From the IMG/VR virus record IMGVR_UViG_2648501186_000006: a DNA stretch of 19,651 nt. One strand, given 5' to 3'. This document shows positions 1-19,651 of the stretch, piece after piece. The translations under genes were made by a program, and so were the position numbers. The stretch comes from a virus. Lineage: Duplodnaviria > Heunggongvirae > Uroviricota > Caudoviricetes. Numbering within the stretch: the first letter of the stretch is position 1; each line of letters opens with the position of its first letter. The notes below the pieces were generated by a model that saw only the letters and a program-made list of their open reading frames with translations, did not search any database and was not told the DNA's origin.

Positions 1-306
1 GATGAACAATACCGTCATGCTTTTGAACTTGCCGATCAGCTTGGTTTAAAACATCCAGATTGTATCGAGCATGTATTTCCAACTTATGCTGATGAGCAAT
101 GTAATCAAGTGCTTATTGAAGAGGATTTTTTCAGCACTGAAGAACGAGAAAGCGTTGATCGCTGCATTGGTGTGATTTGTTCTTCGGTAAGTGATGATTT
201 ATTCCCTAATGTGCCGGAAGGTGGTGGTGTTGGATACCAATTCCTGTATGAAGGCGATGAGCTTAAATGTTATGAACATGGTCTTCTCATCGAAAGCGTA
301 GAATAA
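1..306 (+). CDS. 3' end of a gene that starts upstream of the window (hypothetical protein, partial)
   Basis: Frame 1 is open from base 1 to the TAA at 304-306; the listed 65-aa ORF (109..306) is only its tail. Product not recognised. Confidence 0.5.
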   Translation, partial: DEQYRHAFELADQLGLKHPDCIEHVFPTYADEQCNQVLIEEDFFSTEERESVDRCIGVICSSVSDDLFPNVPEGGGVGYQFLYEGDELKCYEHGLLIESVE

Positions 307-320
307 TACGGTTTCCTTCC

Positions 321-346
321 AACCGGCTTTGTTGGCCGGTTTATTC
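321..346 (+). terminator. Putative intrinsic terminator after the upstream gene
   Basis: Hairpin AACCGGC-tttgttg-GCCGGTT (321-341) followed by a T-rich tail (TTATT). Confidence 0.4.
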
Positions 347-349
347 AAC

Positions 350-358
350 TTATCCACA
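350..358 (+). promoter_or_regulatory. DnaA box (TTATCCACA) at the plasmid origin
   Basis: Exact match to the 9-mer DnaA box consensus TTATNCACA, placed just upstream of the GATC cluster and iterons as in P1 oriR-type origins. Confidence 0.5.
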
Positions 359-363
359 GCATA

Positions 364-420
364 GATCCAATAAACAGATCCCAAAGAGAACCTAGGAAGA
401 TCCAAAGAAGATCCCGGATC
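364..420. promoter_or_regulatory. Cluster of five GATC (Dam methylation) sites in AGATCC-type heptamer repeats, origin-like
   Basis: GATC at 364, 377, 399, 410 and 417 within 57 bp, mostly as AGATCCA/AGATCCC; a sixth at 454. P1 oriR has a comparable 5x GATC heptamer block (established knowledge). Confidence 0.55.
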
Positions 421-462
421 GCTGTAAGCCGCGCCGTTCATGGCCTAAAACGGGATCAACAT

Positions 463-10567: not shown

Positions 10568-10591
10568 AAGCTCCTACGGGAGCTTTTTTTT
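10568..10591 (+). terminator. Rho-independent terminator ending the structural gene block
   Basis: AGCTCC-tacg-GGAGCT stem-loop followed by 8 T. Confidence 0.7.
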
Positions 10592-10719
10592 ATAACTATT
10601 TTATATAAAAATGCATTGATAACATTGTCTGGAGTTTTATGTTAGATTATTAATGTTCTAATAAACTACAATTATTGAGGTAGAGGTTTGTGCCTGTACT
10701 GTTAAAGGGGGACTCTAAA

Positions 10720-11316
10720 ATGGCTGTGATTCCAATGTCGTACTCCCCGGGTACTGTCGCTCGTCGATTTTCGATCCTGGACGGAGTTACCATCCAGGGT
10801 GTGCTTTACCAGGTTATATGGGATTCCAAAACCCCATTTGCAGCTGTAATAGAGGCTGCGCCTTCTGTTATCGATGGTGATATGCGGCATAAGGTTGTCG
10901 CTACTCTTGAACTTCAACGTCGCCCGCAGCTTGAAGGTGTACTGGTAAGGAGGTTCTGGGAGGATAGTGATGTTGCCCAAATTGAAGGTATCGTGGTTGA
11001 TGGAACCGTCCGTGATGTCGGTTTAGCTACTTTTGTTTACGAAACCGTAGCCTCAAAAGCTGGTGTTGTTTTGCTTAGTGATAATGAGCAATACGAAGGT
11101 GGAAAAGCTCTTTGGCAACACATCGCCCGTCGCTCTTCCGAGCTAAAAGTGTTTATCCTCGACACCGATGCCGCTCAGTATTACCCGTTTGACGGCGAAC
11201 GTGTTTGCTATGACGGGGTAAGTATTCCTGAATCTGAGATATGGAGTGAACACCCAGATCGAAGTAAGCATGGGGTTGTTCTTGTCGCTGAATCCATAAC
11301 TGGAAAGGCGGCATAG
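10720..11316 (+). CDS. Hypothetical protein (199 aa) with its own promoter; weak GNAT-like motif
   Basis: Start ATG 10720 with SD AAGGGGG (track start is GTG 10690). Preceded by a terminator and a promoter-like TTGATA...TAGATT region. Segment RDVGLATFVYETVASKAGVVLLSDNEQYEGGKALW loosely resembles GNAT motif A. Confidence 0.55.
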   Translation: MAVIPMSYSPGTVARRFSILDGVTIQGVLYQVIWDSKTPFAAVIEAAPSVIDGDMRHKVVATLELQRRPQLEGVLVRRFWEDSDVAQIEGIVVDGTVRDVGLATFVYETVASKAGVVLLSDNEQYEGGKALWQHIARRSSELKVFILDTDAAQYYPFDGERVCYDGVSIPESEIWSEHPDRSKHGVVLVAESITGKAA

Positions 11317-11559
11317 CAGTAAAATTCCTTGCTCCTTAAAAGGGGAGAGGGTTAATCTAGATATGCTAAGCATGGATATGGCCTCAGATTAATGTTAAGC
11401 GTCTTGCAGGACGCGTAATGTTATCTGGGGCTTTCTTCTGTTATTTGTTTGAGTGCTAGGTAGCAAAGAGAGCTAGCATTCATCAGGCAAATCTATCAAT
11501 AAATAGCGTTAGTTTTTGTTGTGTGTATGTTTCTTTATTGTTATTGTGTTGTTTGTTTT

Positions 11560-11582
11560 TTGGACAACGCAATTCCTATAAT
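11560..11582 (+). promoter_or_regulatory. Candidate promoter for the DUF3892-like gene (perfect -10 TATAAT)
   Basis: TATAAT at 11577-11582, 22 nt upstream of the SD; the upstream TTGGAC spacing is suboptimal, so the -35 assignment is uncertain. Confidence 0.3.
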
Positions 11583-11604
11583 CTATAGAATAAAGGAAGT
11601 ATAT

Positions 11605-11892
11605 ATGGCTGATGTACGCATTACTTGCATTACCCTCTCCGGCTCGCAATCAATCCATGAGCATATTACTCATGTGGGAAGTCCTCAATTTAATACTAGC
11701 AATGGGAAATGGACTGTTGAGCAGGTAATTAATGCTATTGATAATAATCTCCATACATTCTATGTAACAGATAATGCAGGTAATCGTGTAGAAGTTGGGG
11801 TTGTTAATCCTGGTAATGGTGGAAGGCAGTTTATTAGAACGTATGCAGACAATCGATGGAATAATAATTTACTATCGCTACCAGTCTGTTAA
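11605..11892 (+). CDS. Small DUF3892-like protein (95 aa)
   Basis: ATG 11605 with SD AAGGAAG at 11593-11599. Motifs MADVRITCI...SGS..HEHITHVG...GKWTVEQVINAI...NLHTFYV.D..GNRVEVGVV...RTYADNRWNNNLLSLP.C match a small conserved family I recall as DUF3892. About 36% GC, well below the backbone. Confidence 0.6.
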   Translation: MADVRITCITLSGSQSIHEHITHVGSPQFNTSNGKWTVEQVINAIDNNLHTFYVTDNAGNRVEVGVVNPGNGGRQFIRTYADNRWNNNLLSLPVC

Positions 11893-11903
11893 TGTAATTT
11901 TAT

Positions 11904-11938
11904 AAAAAAGGCTGCAACCTCTGTTGCAGCCTTTTTTT
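11904..11938. terminator. Bidirectional intrinsic terminator between convergent genes
   Basis: A-run, GGCTGCAAC-ctct-GTTGCAGCC, T-run (7 T); can terminate both the + DUF3892-like gene and the - ATPase gene. Confidence 0.7.
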
Positions 11939-11962
11939 AGCCATTATGACTGAGATAAGCCA

Positions 11963-13018
11963 CTATAAACTCTGAACAAGACGTTCGATTGCTGCACCAT
12001 ATCTTTCTAATGGTTCATTATTGATTTGTGGCTCAGTGTCATGGATCTGATATCTGCCTGGTTTTATATCAAATAGAGGTCTTCCTAGATGGGAAGATAC
12101 TATAGCTACGGAATGGTTATCTGGCACAGTAAACGTTTTTAAATTTCCGCCTTGGAACGCTGTTGGTTTATTCGTCCGCAGATTTTCAGCTCTATCCCTG
12201 ATTTCGTCGAACATTGCCGAAAACGCTTTACTTGCTCGTTTGTCATACTCTGTCGAACGATTAAAAACTAGAGAATGAATGACAGGAACCGCTAGACCAA
12301 ACTGTTGACACCGATCGTAAAAGTTAACAGAACGATAATCGTTTTGTACTCCAACGCCATAAACCAACTGGCTTAGGTTATCCACTGCTCGAGCCGAAGA
12401 ACCATCACTTGAGCAAGGTATTATAATTGCATTTGCTGCTATCAGTGATAGTTCGGTATAGGCAGAGAAACTGGGGTTGCAATCAATAAAGCAAATGGTT
12501 TCTTCGATACCTTGTTGTTGTGCGCATGCAACAAGCAAATCTCGTAGCCACAGGTGGATGCTTTTCCATGAGTCAACTGGTAAGTTTACGCTGCTTAACT
12601 GATTGATTACTTGCGCCTGAACTTCCAGGCTTGGGTCGCCTGCAATCAAAAATACATTGTCAGGGACATGCTCGTTAATTTCAGAGACATGAATTAAGAA
12701 ACTTGTTTCTGAACCAGTAAGCATGTGGGGGCTACGGGTTCTTCTGTCAAAGTACCCACCGACAGTTTTTCGTTGTTGAATTAAGCTCGCGAGGTTAGCA
12801 GCACCAGTACCGTTACCGCCGAGCAATATTTCAGATAAGTTAGCCTGTGGACACATATCTGCAAAAATAATACGCTTTTCTGGATTTTGCCTTGCGTATT
12901 CACAGGCCATAGCGAAAGATAAGTAGGTCTTTCCTACGCCACCTTTATTATTCCAAATAGCATATGATTTCATGGTATCCCCGGCGTTATCTGCTGTTTG
13001 TGTGCCAGCATAAGTCAT
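11963..13018 (-). CDS. ParA/MinD-family P-loop ATPase (deviant Walker A), orphan with no adjacent ParB
   Basis: NNKGGVGKT Walker A and hydrophobic-D Walker B (ICFIDCNPS). 351 aa from ATG 13018, or 336 aa from ATG 12973 which puts Walker A at residues 9-16; both have a plausible SD. Co-directional with and just downstream of repL; about 41% GC. Confidence 0.7.
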   Translation of the reverse strand: MTYAGTQTADNAGDTMKSYAIWNNKGGVGKTYLSFAMACEYARQNPEKRIIFADMCPQANLSEILLGGNGTGAANLASLIQQRKTVGGYFDRRTRSPHMLTGSETSFLIHVSEINEHVPDNVFLIAGDPSLEVQAQVINQLSSVNLPVDSWKSIHLWLRDLLVACAQQQGIEETICFIDCNPSFSAYTELSLIAANAIIIPCSSDGSSARAVDNLSQLVYGVGVQNDYRSVNFYDRCQQFGLAVPVIHSLVFNRSTEYDKRASKAFSAMFDEIRDRAENLRTNKPTAFQGGNLKTFTVPDNHSVAIVSSHLGRPLFDIKPGRYQIHDTEPQINNEPLERYGAAIERLVQSL

Positions 13019-13282
13019 TATGCATCTCCATTACTATCCATGAATTAAGTCAAAAAATATGTAAAAGTAGCAATTTATCACTCTTTTACTCATTATAAAC
13101 GTTACAGGTTGTGATGGTTAGCTGTGTTTTTATCAGTACAAGTTTTGATCTGGCTTTGGGGGGTTATATATGGATATGTCTCAAAGATGCCCTGCAAAAA
13201 GCGATCGCTAACTGTAAAAAATCAGATTGCATCTTCGACCTCAAACTGAAAACGCCAGGTGACTCCAGATTAGAGCAATCTA

Positions 13283-14128
13283 TCACCCTCTGAATCCTGC
13301 CGGTATACCCCATTGTTCGTTATCTTTATTTTTGGCTAAAACCGCATTAAGAGCTTCGTTTACCGTCATGCAATGCGGCAGATTATCGAAGTTTGATACC
13401 CCGCCAATATCAGGAGAACGCTTGTTCTTCAGGTAAGCATATTTCCGCGCTGCCGCCTCTACTTTCTGCTTGAACTCATGTTTTTGAGCGCGTTTTTTGG
13501 ATAAACGCAGATTGTCGGCCTTTGCTTTTGCCCCAGCGATCCATGAAGTCAATTTTTTGAGTTTGGTCGTTCCGGCAGCGCCGGAAACTGATCTTTTTGT
13601 TTTTTTAAATTGTGACTTCTTATTCTTTATTGCCACGTCATCCTGACAGGGGGAGGGGGTATCATTTTGACATGGGGGTGTGGATAAAAAATCAAATAAA
13701 GCCAATGTCTTAGCGAGAACAGCTTTAACCTTGGTTGCGGCTGAAGAGATCTTTAATTTGCTTTCAATTAGCGCATTTTTGGCTTGTTGAGCAAAGGCTA
13801 AAAAGGATGGTGTAAACCGGTACAGGTTAGCGCGGCGTTCACGGTGATCGCCGATAACAATCTCTACCGACAGGATTCCTTTGTTTACAGCTTCACGGAA
13901 TGCGCGAACGACGGTTGATTGGCTATAACCAGTTTCTGCCGCGATCATGCGGTGAGGCTTGTGAATGAAGTATTCACTGGTTGTTGCCGCGAGATTTGCA
14001 CATTGCGACAGGATATGCCCGGCGCTACGGGATAGACCGGAGTGTGTTACAAAGCAGGCCAATTCATAGCCAGAAAAAGTAAAATCGCTCATCGTTATAC
14101 AGCTCAGGAAAGTGACTTTAGCCAGCAT
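13283..14128 (-). CDS. repL: Lytic replication protein RepL (P1-type)
   Basis: Immediately downstream of kilA on the same strand under a C1-operator promoter, the P1 kilA-repL arrangement; sequence matches my recollection of RepL. True start may be the internal ATG at 14092 (MSDFTF...). Confidence 0.75.
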   Translation of the reverse strand: MLAKVTFLSCITMSDFTFSGYELACFVTHSGLSRSAGHILSQCANLAATTSEYFIHKPHRMIAAETGYSQSTVVRAFREAVNKGILSVEIVIGDHRERRANLYRFTPSFLAFAQQAKNALIESKLKISSAATKVKAVLAKTLALFDFLSTPPCQNDTPSPCQDDVAIKNKKSQFKKTKRSVSGAAGTTKLKKLTSWIAGAKAKADNLRLSKKRAQKHEFKQKVEAAARKYAYLKNKRSPDIGGVSNFDNLPHCMTVNEALNAVLAKNKDNEQWGIPAGFRG

Positions 14129-14157
14129 TACAATGCTGGTGGTTCTTACTACGTCTG

Positions 14158-14958
14158 TTAGCGCGTTGCCGCGACAGGTACCAGCACACCAGCATCAAGC
14201 AATCGCTTTATCAGCCACTGCTGACCTTTGCCGGTTATACGAGTCGTGAAAGAAATCCTGCTTCCATTGCTTGTATCGATCACGGTTTCTTTAAGGGTGA
14301 AATACCCACGAGATATGTATTCTTGTTTGGGAACGTTCCTGCGTTCACCGGTTGCGATCAGAATTCCGTTATCACGCAACCAGGTGAAGAGATAGTTTTG
14401 GCCCAGGCCGAGCACTTTGGCATAGTTGCCGATTAGAACCCCGCTGGCGGTAGCAACGCGTTCGGCGAATTCGACTTTAGGTGCATCCATCAGCATTTTT
14501 TGCTCCAGCCGTTGCTTTTGCTCTGCCAGGTCGGCAGCCAAACGGAGAGCTTCTGGGAGGCTCTTCGGAATAGCAGGTTGTAATCTTCCAGCTCGATAGT
14601 CGATAAATGTCTGGTTTACCTTCAGCCGAAACGCGGGAGAAATCCAGCCTGCGTACTCCACAGCGAGCAATTCATGGGCAAAAGTGCCGCCGCCACGGCC
14701 TTCGAACGAAACTATGCAATTCTGCATAGTTTCTTTTTCCAGCTCTTCGATGAGCTGTTTGGCTGACAGCGTTCTTAGCCATTGAGCTGGCGCTTTATGG
14801 GCACCGAGTCCGCTCGCTCTGTGTAGAGCATTAAGGTTGTAACGGCCAGCGCGGTCGGTCGTAATTTCAACACCACAAATAACAGGCAGAGTGGTTGAAG
14901 GATCGACATTTTGATGAAGGTTTGATATATTCATATCCGCATTGAATGTTTGTTGCAT
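14158..14958 (-). CDS. kilA: KilA (KilA-N domain plus C-terminal ANT/KilA-C domain)
   Basis: 266 aa, SD GGAG before ATG. The C-terminal roughly 130 aa is clearly paralogous to the Ant C-terminus in this window (shared LPEALRLAA-LAEQK...GKGQQWL...LLDAG). Position upstream of repL. Confidence 0.8.
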   Translation of the reverse strand: MQQTFNADMNISNLHQNVDPSTTLPVICGVEITTDRAGRYNLNALHRASGLGAHKAPAQWLRTLSAKQLIEELEKETMQNCIVSFEGRGGGTFAHELLAVEYAGWISPAFRLKVNQTFIDYRAGRLQPAIPKSLPEALRLAADLAEQKQRLEQKMLMDAPKVEFAERVATASGVLIGNYAKVLGLGQNYLFTWLRDNGILIATGERRNVPKQEYISRGYFTLKETVIDTSNGSRISFTTRITGKGQQWLIKRLLDAGVLVPVAATR

Positions 14959-15027
14959 TTTTTCTCCAAATTTGCATCAACCTTCAATCACCAGCTCGAA
15001 ATGGTGATTCTTTGCACTTAGAAAACG

Positions 15028-15044
15028 AAATTTATTAGAGCAAA
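15028..15044 (-). promoter_or_regulatory. C1 repressor operator (Op53-like), 16 of 17 match to ATTGCTCTAATAAATTT, over the kilA-repL promoter
   Basis: - strand reads tTTGCTCTAATAAATTT; located 70-90 bp upstream of the kilA start, as for P1 P53/Op53 (established knowledge). Confidence 0.55.
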
Positions 15045-15086
15045 TTTTTCTGACTCGATCCAGATCGGGTTGGTCGATCTGCTCAG

Positions 15087-15120
15087 AAACCTGCCAGTTT
15101 GCTGGCAGGTTTTTTCTTTT
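15087..15120 (-). terminator. Terminator after ant (hairpin CCTGCCAG-caaa-CTGGCAGG)
   Basis: Stem-loop 2 nt after the ant stop. The U-tract on the - strand is short (TTTCT) while the + strand side has a long T-run, so efficiency in the ant direction is uncertain. Confidence 0.5.
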
Positions 15121-15121
15121 G

Positions 15122-16165
15122 TTAACCTATTGCTACTGGTTTTAACAAACCAGCATCAAGTAGCTTGCGAGTTAACCACTGCTGGCCTTTACCCGTTAAT
15201 TGGGGCGTCAGCCGTATCTGGTAGCCATTTTCATCATCCAGCACCACTTCTTTCACCGTGAAATACCCGGCGTTAATGTACTGCTGGCGCGGTACGTTTT
15301 TGCGCGCACCAAAAGCCATGAGAATGCCGTTCTGGCGCAACCATGAGAAAAGGGCGTTTTGCTTAAGTCCAACGACCTTTGCAAAGTTCCCGATCAGGAT
15401 TCCATTAGCCACTGATACCCGGTCGGCAAAATCGACTTTAGGGGCTGCGGCCACCAGCTGTTGTTCCAGCTGCAATTTCTGTTCTGCCAACTCGGCAGCC
15501 AGGCGTAGGGCTTCTGGTAATGTTTGGGGGATCGATGGGGTAGGGGAGTTTGCCTGCTGCAATTCTTCCAGTTTGTCGATCAGCGAACGGCGGACCGCTT
15601 TCGATTCGCGCGCGGCGACTCGCAGGGCTTGTTTGTAGGTCATGGTTATGACAACCATAGGCGTACCGCCACCTGGCGGCACGGTTGCACTTTTTGTGTA
15701 ACCGTCCTCACCTTCTAATTCGTCGAGTATTTTTTCGATGAATTTGTTGTTCCGAACCTCTGGTTCCCCACATAACTTACGCGCTTCATTGACCATCTTT
15801 AACAGTGTCAGGCTGTCGATTGTGTCTCCGGTGGTGGGGATGACATTCACGGCTGGTGCTGGCGTTGCTGAAGCAACAGGTGCTGGTTTTTTAACATTCA
15901 AATTATTACTGGTCATTCTATGTGCCTCCTTTCTCATTTCTGCTGCCACCGTTGCGTAACGTAGACGTCCTTGTTCAATCAAATAATCCCTGATCTCGGC
16001 TATCAGTAGCCTGTTGATCACAGCCTTATCTGTTCGGGTATAAAAACGCCTGGTTATCATGAAATAGTTGGCAATTGCGCCGGGGATCTCCCGTGTCGGT
16101 ATACAGGCAGTATGCAGGGCGATCGCTTCGGCTATGTCATTACGGGTGACGAGAGGTTTTTTCAC
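15122..16165 (-). CDS. ant: Antirepressor Ant (Ant1; internal in-frame Met near residue 77 could give an Ant2-like product)
   Basis: 347 aa, downstream of c4 and icd with a GTG start overlapping the icd stop (GTGA); C-terminal ANT/KilA-C domain shared with KilA. Matches the P1 immI layout. Confidence 0.85.
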   Translation of the reverse strand: MKKPLVTRNDIAEAIALHTACIPTREIPGAIANYFMITRRFYTRTDKAVINRLLIAEIRDYLIEQGRLRYATVAAEMRKEAHRMTSNNLNVKKPAPVASATPAPAVNVIPTTGDTIDSLTLLKMVNEARKLCGEPEVRNNKFIEKILDELEGEDGYTKSATVPPGGGTPMVVITMTYKQALRVAARESKAVRRSLIDKLEELQQANSPTPSIPQTLPEALRLAAELAEQKLQLEQQLVAAAPKVDFADRVSVANGILIGNFAKVVGLKQNALFSWLRQNGILMAFGARKNVPRQQYINAGYFTVKEVVLDDENGYQIRLTPQLTGKGQQWLTRKLLDAGLLKPVAIG

Positions 16166-16383
16166 AAACCCCCCTGAACGTCGGCAGAGAAGGGGAGGCT
16201 CCAGTAACTAAGTGAATTGCGCGAGTTAGTTGAAAAACGGGCAGTAAAAATGCAGGGGCCATCAGGCAATTGAGAGCGTGCTTCGTCTTCAGTTGCTGCG
16301 ATAACGAAGTGATAGTGGTGTTTTTTACAGGAATAGAAACGCCAGATGAATTCTGGGCGTGCGCAAGGATTGGCATTAACCAT
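16162..16383 (-). CDS. icd: Icd (73-aa cell division inhibitor whose translation is coupled to ant)
   Basis: 73 codons; SD GAGG lies inside the b2 antisense target; its stop overlaps the ant start. Size and position match P1 icd as I recall it. Confidence 0.65.
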   Translation of the reverse strand: MVNANPCARPEFIWRFYSCKKHHYHFVIAATEDEARSQLPDGPCIFTARFSTNSRNSLSYWSLPFSADVQGGL

Positions 16384-16435
16384 AGTTACGGCCTCACAAT
16401 CAGGTTTAACAACCTGCTACCCGCTGCTAAACAGG

Positions 16436-16512
16436 TGGCAGGACGTGACGGGGTTAGCAGACTGGCGATTGTGAAACCAGCAGGCCGAAGCCTCCCCATC
16501 ACGCCCCACCAT
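16436..16512 (-). ncRNA. c4: c4 antisense repressor RNA (boundaries approximate)
   Basis: - strand segment CGTGATGGGG...CCCCGTCACG forms a closing stem and contains CACAATC (b') and CTGCTAACC (a'). Complementary targets occur upstream (a1 16592-16603, b1 16579-16585) and downstream (a2 16423-16433, b2 16395-16401, over the icd SD). Confidence 0.55.
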
Positions 16513-16630
16513 AATTTGGGCGTAACGCGGTTTTACGGACACAAAAATACCGCAATATCGGATATCTGCGGCTGTCCGCACAATCATTCAGGCTGCTAAA
16601 CCCGGTCGCAGAATTTGCTACGACGGCGGA

Positions 16631-16659
16631 ACTATAAGCCTGAACGATTAAAAGGTCAA
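16631..16659 (-). promoter_or_regulatory. Sigma70 promoter for the c4-icd-ant transcript (P51-like): TTGACC, 17 nt, TATAGT
   Basis: On the - strand TTGACC (16659-16654), a 17-nt spacer, then TATAGT (16636-16631); a1/b1, c4, icd and ant lie downstream. Confidence 0.6.
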
Positions 16660-16697
16660 TATGATGCGAAAAGATAGCATTCGTGACTTAAAAATAC

Positions 16698-16714
16698 AAA
16701 TTTATTAGAGTATT
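16698..16714 (-). promoter_or_regulatory. C1 operator-like site (15 of 17) in the divergent immI / sim-like control region
   Basis: - strand reads AATACTCTAATAAATTT against consensus ATTGCTCTAATAAATTT; sits between the P51-like promoter and the + strand secreted-protein operon. Confidence 0.45.
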
Positions 16715-16810
16715 ATCTGCTTAATAAATACACAATTGGATCTAATAACCTCTTTTTTTTAAAGGCGAAAATATGTACCTTAAATGGGTTATAAGGCAGG
16801 TGAGGTTATA

Positions 16811-16942
16811 ATGAGAAAACTATTACTATCGTTATTATTTATGGCTGGGACTGTTAATGCAGCATCAAGCGTAAAGGAGATTTGTACCGATTATACGAAA
16901 TACCTTTGGCAAGTTTACGCCTTTGCGATCAATGACTATTAA
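16811..16942 (+). CDS. Small secreted peptide precursor (43 aa, SPI-type signal peptide), first gene of the sim-like operon
   Basis: Not in the ORF track. ATG 16811 with SD GGTGAGG; MRKLLLSLLFMAGTVNA|ASS... is a textbook signal peptide with an AxA cleavage site; mature peptide about 26 aa. About 30% GC. Confidence 0.45.
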   Translation: MRKLLLSLLFMAGTVNAASSVKEICTDYTKYLWQVYAFAINDY

Positions 16943-16963
16943 TCCATGCGTAGGAGTGGATTT

Positions 16964-17281
16964 ATGCTGATTCGTTTGTTTTTAGTGCTTTCCTTTTTAA
17001 CATTTAATGTTTTTGCTGATGAAGTTGACTTTTCGAAGGTAGATTGTAATTCAGTGGAAACAAGAAAAGCTCTTATTGAAGAATATAACGAAATATTATC
17101 GTCATATGGAATAACAGTGGTTGATTCTTATAATCAAAAAACTATTCAGAAAGGAATAAATAAACTGGTCTGTTATGGGGTTTACCAATATTCAGATGGC
17201 TCTTCGGAGTATGTTATTTATAAAGCATACCCAAATAGTCTTGGTGAATTAATTAGTGAGTTTAAACCGATTAATGAGTGA
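16964..17281 (+). CDS. Secreted protein (105 aa, signal peptide), sim-like operon
   Basis: ATG 16964 with SD GGAG at 16952-16955 (track start 16946 is upstream of the SD). N-terminus MLIRLFLVLSFLTFNVFA|DEV is a signal peptide. Confidence 0.55.
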   Translation: MLIRLFLVLSFLTFNVFADEVDFSKVDCNSVETRKALIEEYNEILSSYGITVVDSYNQKTIQKGINKLVCYGVYQYSDGSSEYVIYKAYPNSLGELISEFKPINE

Positions 17282-17288
17282 ATGGAAA

Positions 17289-18068
17289 ATGAAATTATTT
17301 AATGTAATAACATTTTGTTGTGCTATTTTTGCTGGAAGCGCGATAGCTGATAATAAATTGCCAGATTGGCTTTCTACCTCAAAGAAAGATTATGATTTAG
17401 TAAGGGCATTCTATTTGTCTGGATTTGCTTCGAAAGCAATGAACAATCAATTTGGTTATCATTTGCCATCTGAGTTGGTTAATGATTTTAAAGATAATGA
17501 ATTTGCTGCTCAGGAAAAATGGAACACAATTCCAATTGTGTATGGTGAAATAAAATCCATAAGAATGGTGAATAATAAACCAATTGTAGAGTTATTTACT
17601 CCAGGGGAAAATGCAACGCCACTAAATTATATCAAATTGAAAATATTGGATTCAAAGCAAGACTCTCTGTTAAAACTAAAAAAAGGGGATGATATATATG
17701 CAGTGTGCTCAGGTGCTAATTTTAGCTTAGTGCCAATTCTGAGCAACTGCACTCCTGCAACAGACGTCATTGATGCTGCACTCTCTTTTTCTGGTGAATA
17801 TATGTTCCCTGCTTTTGATTCTTTTTCACCTACTAAGCAAAACGTCAAATATATATTCACAAATCAAGATCCTGTTCAGATGATGAATTTTATAGGGTAC
17901 CTATCCTTAGTCGATACAACGAAGGATAAGAAAAAAATGGATATGGTTCGTAAGTGTACGCCTTGGAAGCCGGAATGTTCACAACAATTCGTTGATGTAA
18001 TGGAAGGATTTGATAGCATCATGTATAAATATGAGGGAGAATTTAAAAATTACATAGAATTAAAATAG
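17289..18068 (+). CDS. Secreted or periplasmic protein (259 aa, signal peptide), candidate SimC-like superinfection exclusion protein
   Basis: ATG 17289 gives MKLFNVITFCCAIFAGSAIA|DNK (track start 17256 adds 11 aa before the signal peptide). Third gene of an AT-rich operon divergent from c4-icd-ant, the position of P1 sim; no sequence-level confirmation. Confidence 0.55.
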   Translation: MKLFNVITFCCAIFAGSAIADNKLPDWLSTSKKDYDLVRAFYLSGFASKAMNNQFGYHLPSELVNDFKDNEFAAQEKWNTIPIVYGEIKSIRMVNNKPIVELFTPGENATPLNYIKLKILDSKQDSLLKLKKGDDIYAVCSGANFSLVPILSNCTPATDVIDAALSFSGEYMFPAFDSFSPTKQNVKYIFTNQDPVQMMNFIGYLSLVDTTKDKKKMDMVRKCTPWKPECSQQFVDVMEGFDSIMYKYEGEFKNYIELK

Positions 18069-18097
18069 TATTTGAAAGGATAGTCAATTTAAGTTTT

Positions 18098-18130
18098 AAA
18101 AAAACGCCCATTAAAGGGCGTTTTATTGTT
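18098..18130 (+). terminator. Rho-independent terminator after the sim-like operon
   Basis: A-run, ACGCCC-attaaa-GGGCGT, then TTTTATTGTTTT. Confidence 0.6.
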
Positions 18131-18274
18131 TTACTCAAAACAACCTGACTCAAAGCAACCTGATTGTGTGATAACCATATGATACTCCTCATTCCATCTA
18201 CACTACCTACTCTAACTTAATGATACCATATTACTCCCGGACGGCAATATTCCCACTCAATGGACAAATGACTA

Positions 18275-18882
<608 letters not shown>

Positions 18883-18917
18883 GGGAGCTGATAGCGCAGG
18901 CGATAAAAAACGGAGAT

Positions 18918-19651
18918 ATGCCACCAGCTATTGACTGGTTTTCCATTCGCCCAACCAGGGTGAAAGCATTCCTTAGCGCGGCGCATTCGGCATCACCATT
19001 GGCAGAAATGGTTCAGAGGTTGTCGCTCATATTCACAGACCATACCGCGTTGGGTGATCTGACTCTGGACGAGATGAAAGAAGCCTCCATTCAGTGGGCC
19101 GATCAACAAAATGAGGTTAACTCTGACTTCTTGCCAGCATTCAGGAAGGCCGTTAGTAAAGCGGATGATGCCCGTGGAATTCTGAAGGCATTTAAGGCAT
19201 TGCAAAGTCGTGTTAATAAACATGTCGGTGATATCGATGGGGTAACGGCGGAAGGCCGGGATATCCTTAAAGAGCACGGCATAACGCCAGAGTTTATTGA
19301 TGAGATCAGGACTGATATGCAGCGTGAGGTCGTATCGTCCCTGCAAATCGTAGCCAGAGCGTTGGCGGATGCTAATCCGAAGAGTGCGGCCATTGTTAAC
19401 CGGGTTATTGGTGATATTGAAGCATCGGAGGGCATGGGGGCACTGAAACTCTTCCTTTCGCGAGCGTTTAATCCTAACGGCAATATTCTCCCTGGCATTA
19501 TTGGTGAGGCTAAAAGGTATGTCAGTGAAGAAGAACTTGAGCAGCTTGACCAACTACTTAAGCGATTCTCATATAACCCGCAGACACGCTGGCAAATGAA
19601 TCAGCGAAGTATGGGTTCGGTCCACGAGAAAGTGTTATCTGCCATGAACAG
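18918..19651 (+). CDS. 5' part of a larger helical protein continuing past the window end (possibly a tail structural or tape-measure-like protein)
   Basis: Frame is open from 18879 to the window end (more than 250 codons) and so is absent from the ORF track; first ATG at 18918 (a GTG at 18879 overlapping the upstream stop is also possible). Helical, Ala/Glu/Lys-rich composition. Confidence 0.5.
   Translation, partial: MPPAIDWFSIRPTRVKAFLSAAHSASPLAEMVQRLSLIFTDHTALGDLTLDEMKEASIQWADQQNEVNSDFLPAFRKAVSKADDARGILKAFKALQSRVNKHVGDIDGVTAEGRDILKEHGITPEFIDEIRTDMQREVVSSLQIVARALADANPKSAAIVNRVIGDIEASEGMGALKLFLSRAFNPNGNILPGIIGEAKRYVSEEELEQLDQLLKRFSYNPQTRWQMNQRSMGSVHEKVLSAMN

Follow-up and report, generated by a model that had tools for sequence, protein, structure and literature searches.

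The AT-rich three-gene stretch at positions 16660-18130 of the viral DNA analysed here (19,651 nt in full, hereafter the window) is, with near certainty, the simA-simB-simC superimmunity operon of phage P1, which has already been described. The fuller account, which we hold to be highly probable, is that of a P1 sim operon carried on a P1-like E. coli plasmid from which tail genes have been deleted, with simA surviving as a remnant and SimC acting as a block in the periplasm. There is no new locus here, the P1 sim operon, its low GC content and its variability having been published (PMC9603915). What the comparison adds to the existing annotation is of modest value: the likely remnant nature of simA, a probable OB fold in SimC, and the Oc4-pmgC interval as a site at which cassettes are swapped.

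A megablast search of phage genomes matched 16600-18140 to P1 with 98.7% nucleotide identity over 1539 nt, and beneath this match the P1 annotation carries simA, simB and simC. By blastn, collinearity extends over 13269-18893, following the P1 order repL-kilA-ant-icd-c4-sim-pmgC. Synteny, annotation and Rfam all place sim between Oc4 with c4-icd-ant on one side and the pmgC late operon on the other, divergent from c4, as in P1. The P1 simABC operon (NC_005856 46786-48070) has the same genes in the same order and the same genomic position (Oc4/c4 to pmgC), whereas the window differs from it by extra bases in the simC-pmgC intergenic DNA. Outside phage genomes, 12975-19651 is 100% identical to plasmid unnamed4 of E. 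coli ETEC4073 (NZ_CP122664.1; 67,952 bp; pig faeces), a carrier that, relative to P1, is without about 20 kb of tail and lysis genes. The features of the sim region and of the divergent genes beside it are as follows.

16811-16942, + strand: simA, 43 aa; an alternative start at 16784 gives the 52-aa form annotated in P1
16964-17281, + strand: simB, 105 aa; an alternative start at 16946 gives the 111-aa form annotated in P1
17289-18068, + strand: simC, 259 aa; alternative starts at 17274 and 17256
15122-16165, - strand: ant, divergent from sim
16162-16383, - strand: icd, divergent from sim
16431-16516, - strand: C4 antisense RNA (Rfam RF01695, 69.6 bits)

The original prediction, made from the letters of the DNA, had placed three consecutive + strand open reading frames here, divergent from c4-icd-ant, and had likened their position to the P1 sim locus. 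All three frames are present, the divergence is confirmed and the placement was right. The suggested novelty does not survive. Near-identity to P1 SimABC had been named in advance as an outcome that would speak against it, and SimB is 100% identical (111/111 residues), SimC has a single change (263/264; K in the window, N in P1) and SimA has three (40/43, or 48/52 in the annotated long form). In the 43-residue form of SimA these are residue 7 (S versus P) and W33/Q34 in the window, which are G/H in P1.

The start codons chosen for simA and simB are preceded by Shine-Dalgarno-like sequences, GGTGAGG before 16811 and AGGAG before 16964. For simB and simC they coincide with those called by PGAP on NZ_CP122664.1 (16964 and 17289), and ORF2 (simC) of the 1990 GenBank entry M34382 also starts at MKLFNV. 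PGAP calls simB and simC but not simA on this matching plasmid, and this explains why simA had been described as absent from the open-reading-frame track. That description is correct for PGAP and incorrect for the P1 reference, where simA is annotated. The Rfam matches to C4 and to the c4-a1b1 target element together span 16431-16637 on the - strand, and Rfam gave no match within the sim genes. Minus-strand open reading frames inside 16660-18130 are 31-77 aa long, lie in AT-rich DNA and are without support.

The cassette is compositionally distinct, as had been predicted: GC content is 0.326 over 16715-18140 (0.356 in simA, 0.305 in simB and 0.335 in simC) versus 0.484 in each flank. Sec-type export is predicted for all three proteins by a rule-based check, in which each has an N-region that is short and basic, then a hydrophobic core whose best 10-residue Kyte-Doolittle mean is 2.4-2.7, and finally a small-x-small site at -3/-1. 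The predicted cleavage sites, VNA|AS in SimA, VFA|DE in SimB and AIA|DN in SimC, fit those proposed earlier. No lipobox cysteine is found at +1 in any of the three.

Three further features bound the operon.

16698-16714, - strand: C1 operator Oc4 (formerly Op51), a pattern match with 2 mismatches to ATTGCTCTAATAAATTT, at the position homologous to Oc4 as annotated in P1
16688-16746, + strand: candidate sim promoter region, from a consensus scan and the predicted PsimA of the P1 annotation
18101-18134, + strand: intrinsic terminator of the sim operon, stem-loop AAAACGCCCATTAAAGGGCGTTTT with a T-rich tail

The C1 operator-like site noticed earlier in the shared control region is thus the known P1 operator Oc4/Op51. 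The pattern search is expected to give 0.11 chance matches across the window, and compared with P1 Oc4 the site has one extra mismatch, at 16711. In P1, Oc4 is annotated as controlling the c4 promoter P2c4/P51a. On the sim side, a sigma-70-like site at 16688-16716 agrees with the consensus at 9/12 positions and its -10 element overlaps Oc4, whereas the ‘predicted sigma 70 promoter PsimA’ of P1 falls at the homologous position 16720-16746, outside Oc4. Promoter-like sites in the control region and the AT-rich DNA were, by consensus scan, no commoner than in shuffled sequence. C1 bound at Oc4 may or may not repress sim. The terminator is the sole terminator-like site in 16500-18350 and lies at the right edge of the variable cassette, 5' of the late promoter LPsit and pmgC of the P1 annotation. 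The operon is transcribed away from c4-icd-ant, from the control region that contains Oc4 to this terminator.

The 43-codon frame had been presented as an unannotated secreted peptide. In fact this is simA of P1, which has carried an annotation since the 2004 genome, and comparison with related elements points to a 5' remnant. We judge it likely that simA is what is left of a decaying gene for a secreted protein of 179-215 residues, and not a gene for a dedicated secreted peptide. SimA consists of the signal peptide MRKLLLSLLFMAGTVNA followed by 26 residues. In vB_EcoM-Ro157c2YLVW (hereafter Ro157) the ATG of simA opens a 215-residue frame, and a full-length simA-type gene begins at this same ATG in the contigs L010 and L012 as well. 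Nucleotide homology between Ro157 and the window reaches about 16951 and then ends. By tblastn, the long SimA protein occurs at full length in 84 plasmids; in sim-type plasmids the match covers residues 1-48 of it and so extends across the simA stop codon. Beyond that stop, simA is in the same frame as the P1-annotated simB start, with only TAA and TCC between them, and ‘SMRR’ after the stop is the counterpart of ‘SMRK’ inside the long SimA protein. The extra codons of the P1-annotated simB start (MRRSGF) would accordingly derive from the ancestral simA frame.

The alternative is that SimA is a functional small secreted peptide (a signal, a bacteriocin-like peptide or an accessory exclusion factor) in a three-component system with SimB and SimC. 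Its strong Shine-Dalgarno sequence and canonical signal peptide, its retention in most of the sim-type elements examined and the P1 annotation as ‘putative superimmunity accessory function’ speak for this reading, which we nonetheless regard as improbable. SimA aligns with positions 1-41 only of the 213-position profile of its family (phrog_3933), related elements hold a full-length gene at its position, and the in-frame homology crosses its stop into what had been taken as the N-terminus of SimB. The stop itself is variable, being TAA in P1 and the window, GAA in Ro157 and AAA in the Klebsiella pneumoniae plasmid pMCR_SCKP-LL83, where a fused simA-simB frame of 156 codons results. In the Escherichia albertii plasmid p2RM10705, simA has a frameshift at codon 3 while simB and simC are intact. 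Nine sim-type sequences were examined, few and closely related, and seven of them were compared codon by codon. Among these seven, 4/43 simA codons vary, every variant changing the amino acid (0 synonymous), and the LGH motif, which the long forms conserve, is among the residues affected. Amino-acid changes affect 6/364 codons of simB and simC (Fisher p = 0.014 versus simA). The full-length simA, in turn, is under purifying selection, with pN/pS within the 0.19-0.50 range that it shares with simB and simC.

In L010 (GCA_053108235.1) a 179-residue SimA homologue lies before the SimB and SimC homologues, in the order ant, icd, an IS605-type gene, the SimA, SimB and SimC homologues, pmgC, tub, pmgB and sit. 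The ancestral operon therefore likely had a full-length simA, most of which an internal deletion in the P1 lineage would have removed. What remains would at most still provide a promoter-proximal translation start. Since the sample of simA sequences is small and closely related, the remnant conclusion is probable, not proven, and simA may keep a residual role, given that most sim-type copies retain its Shine-Dalgarno sequence and an intact signal peptide. A remnant simA argues for focusing experiments on simB and simC. L010 is itself a diverged, more distant P1-like contig.

SimB comprises the signal peptide MLIRLFLVLSFLTFNVFA and a predicted mature protein of 87 aa with 2 Cys, and phrog_14329 covers residues 7-111 of its 111-aa form. 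In L010 a 59%-identical SimB homologue lies directly 5' of a SimC homologue of about 39% identity, keeping both the order and the genomic site of the sim pair. With pN/pS of 0.19-0.43 for simB, and 0.19-0.50 for simB and simC together, simB-simC is, by codon comparison, a conserved gene pair under purifying selection. The SimB family comprised 12 clusters in the homologue search. A weak Pfam match of SimB to TcpS (E 0.068) was set aside, as it is confined to the signal-peptide region and reflects signal-peptide similarity.

SimC comprises the signal peptide MKLFNVITFCCAIFAGSAIA and a predicted mature protein of 239 aa, whose 4 Cys fit a periplasmic protein with probable disulfide bonds. Its layout is probably one of N-terminal helices, a PF12869-type OB fold in the centre (about residues 60-156) and a further helical region towards the C-terminus. 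Residues 62-154 match Pfam PF12869 (tRNA_anti-like) at 19.0-19.1 bits (E 1e-3), under the gathering cut-off of 23.5. Four of the eight aligned family members match the same entry, the best with E 2e-14. Both a fold match to a solved PF12869 member and a link through intermediate homologues were found.

Structural modelling was performed using AF2. From an eight-sequence alignment the SimC model reached pLDDT 75.4 and pTM 0.54, with the five models ranging from pLDDT 44 to 75, and placed helices at 32-78 and 157-257 on either side of a beta domain at 83-156. A single-sequence model of mature SimC (pLDDT 33) was discarded. In BFVD the OB domain has phage tRNA_anti-like proteins as structural neighbours (E 1e-7 to 6e-5), among them one that bears the name ‘Host cell surface-exposed lipoprotein’. 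The SimC family is tiny: searches of 5.8 billion proteins gave 4-14 clusters, and a set of 1.84 billion gave 15 representatives. The SimB family is likewise tiny, and no deep alignment was obtainable for either. A search of PDB sequences with the SimC family profile returned only a chance match (E 0.16). Exported OB-fold proteins of PF12869 are exemplified by PDB 3f1z, a putative nucleic-acid-binding lipoprotein of Klebsiella pneumoniae. SimC differs in falling below the gathering threshold, in not being a lipoprotein (no lipobox) and in adding to the 3f1z layout a helical segment at the N-terminus and, at the C-terminus, about 100 residues of helical region. Our literature searches found no link of PF12869 to exclusion. 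The predicted OB fold would be the first structural lead for a superinfection-exclusion protein described in 1982-1990.

The interval between Oc4 and pmgC is, on comparison of the sequences found there, a swap site for alternative secreted-protein cassettes. The left flank is matched by 523 PLSDB plasmids, of which 136 have 80% or more of a query spanning the sim cassette. In others the match breaks off at 16710, within Oc4, and picks up again at about 18098-18107, by the terminator. The cassette thus has its left edge at about 16710/16711, within Oc4, and P7, SJ46, RCS47 and many plasmids match only to 16710. At this site P7, SJ46 and RCS47 carry a lipoprotein (with a weak TraT-like Pfam match, 23.1 bits versus a cut-off of 31) and a DUF5384 protein. 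Ro157 carries the long SimA and a 158-residue exported protein, whose homologue in L012 is marked PF27224 YfjT. The metagenomic contig L012 has simB-simC followed by a long simA and the YfjT-like gene. The alternative cargo consists of proteins with signal peptides, and the three cassette types at one site form a natural set for studying the specificity of phage-plasmid exclusion. The simCBA region has already been counted among eight regions of P1-like phage-plasmids that are highly variable and low in GC (PMC9603915).

The title of the 1990 paper by Maillou and Dreiseikelmann speaks of a ‘processed protein’. Together with Devlin et al. 1982, Kliem and Dreiseikelmann 1989 and Lobocka et al. 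2004, that paper reportedly describes normal adsorption to sim-expressing cells, SecA-dependent processing of Sim, and exclusion by multicopy clones. As these were multicopy clones, it is less certain that the operon acts at single copy in a lysogen. Our literature searches found no paper that gives the mechanism of Sim. More recent sources name simC as a superinfection exclusion gene (PMC2409434), state that sim confers superinfection exclusion in P1 (PMC9177967) and suggest that Sim may stop superinfecting phages from injecting their DNA into the cytoplasm (PMC8546580). CRISPRi screening across the whole genome showed simA, simB and simC to be non-essential for lytic growth (PMC10695390).

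We propose a mechanism of periplasmic binding by SimC, for which we consider the chances evenly balanced. Mature SimC would be a soluble periplasmic protein, with SimB as its small periplasmic partner. Through its OB and helical domains SimC would bind a part of the machinery that delivers the P1 genome, or else a factor of the host envelope on which that machinery depends, and so block the transfer of DNA across the periplasm or the inner membrane, after adsorption. The choice between a phage ejection protein and a host factor as the target is purely one of inference, and the present data fit both.

That SimC acts on the host envelope, for example by masking or altering an inner-membrane or periplasmic factor for translocation of P1 DNA, strikes us as rather unlikely. 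Exclusion through a host factor has a precedent in DicB, which inhibits inner-membrane receptor proteins (PMC6832061), and the OB folds of the periplasmic PF12869 family are without a defined ligand. No host partner of SimC is known, however, and the sim cassette lies beside the operon for tail tube and tape measure and is exchanged as a unit among P1-like phages, which fits a phage-specific target at least equally well. The host-factor reading is a variant of the periplasmic mechanism and is compatible with it. We give far less credence to the suggestion, also raised in the original prediction, of a module for toxin-immunity or envelope modification that has nothing to do with phage exclusion. 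Three exported proteins of unassigned biochemistry in a horizontally acquired AT-rich cassette would suit such a module. Nevertheless, simC is nearly identical to a gene that experiment links to P1 superinfection exclusion, and the literature ties it to that function. PADLOC and NCBIfam scans of the three proteins gave no meaningful match and a Pfam scan none above threshold, with no toxin, immunity or defence family found by any of them, and the cassette holds no exporter or modification enzyme. The narrower case of a secreted-peptide toxin or bacteriocin with its immunity protein was rejected, simA being truncated and having stop-loss and frameshift variants, and the cassette being without an exporter or an immunity family.

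Periplasmic binding by SimC invites comparison with Ltp of the Streptococcus thermophilus phage TP-J34, a prophage-encoded surface lipoprotein that blocks DNA injection (PMC3952083). Ltp and Sim, the latter as known from the literature, are alike in being prophage-encoded, exported and active against genome entry after adsorption. By contrast, SimC is not homologous to the Ltp repeat domain in sequence or in fold, has no lipid anchor and would reside in a Gram-negative periplasm; judged by Ltp-type features, the three Sim proteins have no lipobox and no Pfam match to the Ltp domain. The reported target of Ltp is the tape-measure protein.

A joint reading, which we put forward as tentative and on the doubtful side, would make SimC a Gram-negative counterpart of the Ltp type, SimA a third ancestral component since lost, and Oc4-pmgC a hot-spot for exclusion cassettes. 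SimC with SimB would capture Sit, the tape-measure/transglycosylase of P1, or else the tip of the tail while the genome is being delivered, and full-length SimA would have been a third secreted component of the ancestral system, lost by P1. The swapped exclusion cassettes would then be simABC, the long SimA with the YfjT-like protein, and the weakly TraT-like lipoprotein with the DUF5384 protein. If true, this would give a first function to the widespread exported PF12869 family.

Other envelope-located phage proteins that block injection by related phages, as Sim may do, are Sp (spackle) and Imm of phage T4 and SieA of P22. [quoted passage not shown]

The complete 67,952-bp E. coli ETEC4073 plasmid NZ_CP122664.1 and the window share an identical pmgC/ddrB junction. 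In the window this junction lies at 18885-18895, immediately 3′ of the pmgC stop, where the sequence switches to the interior of ddrB, and window 18890-19651 corresponds to P1 25937-25176 (inside ddrB) at 99.1% identity. Approximately 20 kb of P1 is absent at this point, and a 4-bp GATA microhomology is found at the junction. The absent P1 genes are:

tub, pmgB, sit, pmgA, bplA, gene 16, R, S/U, cin, lydABC, hdf, darA, ddrA and the 5′ part of ddrB

Because the junction is also present in the complete plasmid, it is a real deletion. The window belongs to a P1-like plasmid that is defective and tail-less.

The variable cassette has its left breakpoint (16710/16711) inside the C1 repressor operator Oc4 (16698-16714), in which window position 16711 carries one mismatch to the C1 consensus beyond those in P1 (AATACTCT... 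vs AATGCTCT...). In P7-type elements the place of sim is taken by a lipoprotein:

P7 locus L003, 3897-4415, upf50.5 lipoprotein; equivalent site in SJ46 and RCS47

This protein gave a sub-threshold match to Pfam TraT, a conjugative surface-exclusion lipoprotein, of 23.1 bits (cut-off 31). Its RefSeq label, ‘DNA methyltransferase’, appears to be a misannotation.

In the inducible P1-like phage vB_EcoM-813R1 (ON470617.2, 14335-15873) a frameshift breaks simC, which is annotated as two SimC fragments; simB is intact. It follows that simC, the exclusion gene, is dispensable and that it is decaying in some lineages.

A published scan of P1 predicted two adjacent Arg-box-like sequences within simC and a third exactly on the simA/simB junction (PMC2409434). 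The equivalent sites, placed in the window by homology to P1 47270 and 47906, are:

window ~17570-17600, two adjacent Arg-box-like sequences
window ~16940-16950, third Arg-box-like sequence

The third predicted sequence falls on the junction formed by the simA stop codon and the probable deletion within the ancestral simA.

Upstream of C4, a sub-threshold Rfam match to isrK was observed at window 16543-16624 on the minus strand (43.7 bits vs a gathering score of 50), overlapping the c4-a1b1 element. isrK is an Hfq-binding sRNA, and the match probably reflects the known kinship of these prophage immunity leaders.

Two further stretches of the window, 1-2693 and 10590-13268, are mostly unmatched when compared with P1 25000-70000, the sole match within them being window 3-435 (87%). 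They map to the known variable regions repA/upfA and rlfAB/pmgF. The window and its close relative NZ_CP122664.1 diverge upstream of window position 12975, with a shift of ~2.9 kb, and the plasmid region equivalent to window 10590-13268 contains IS91- and IS100-family transposase genes.
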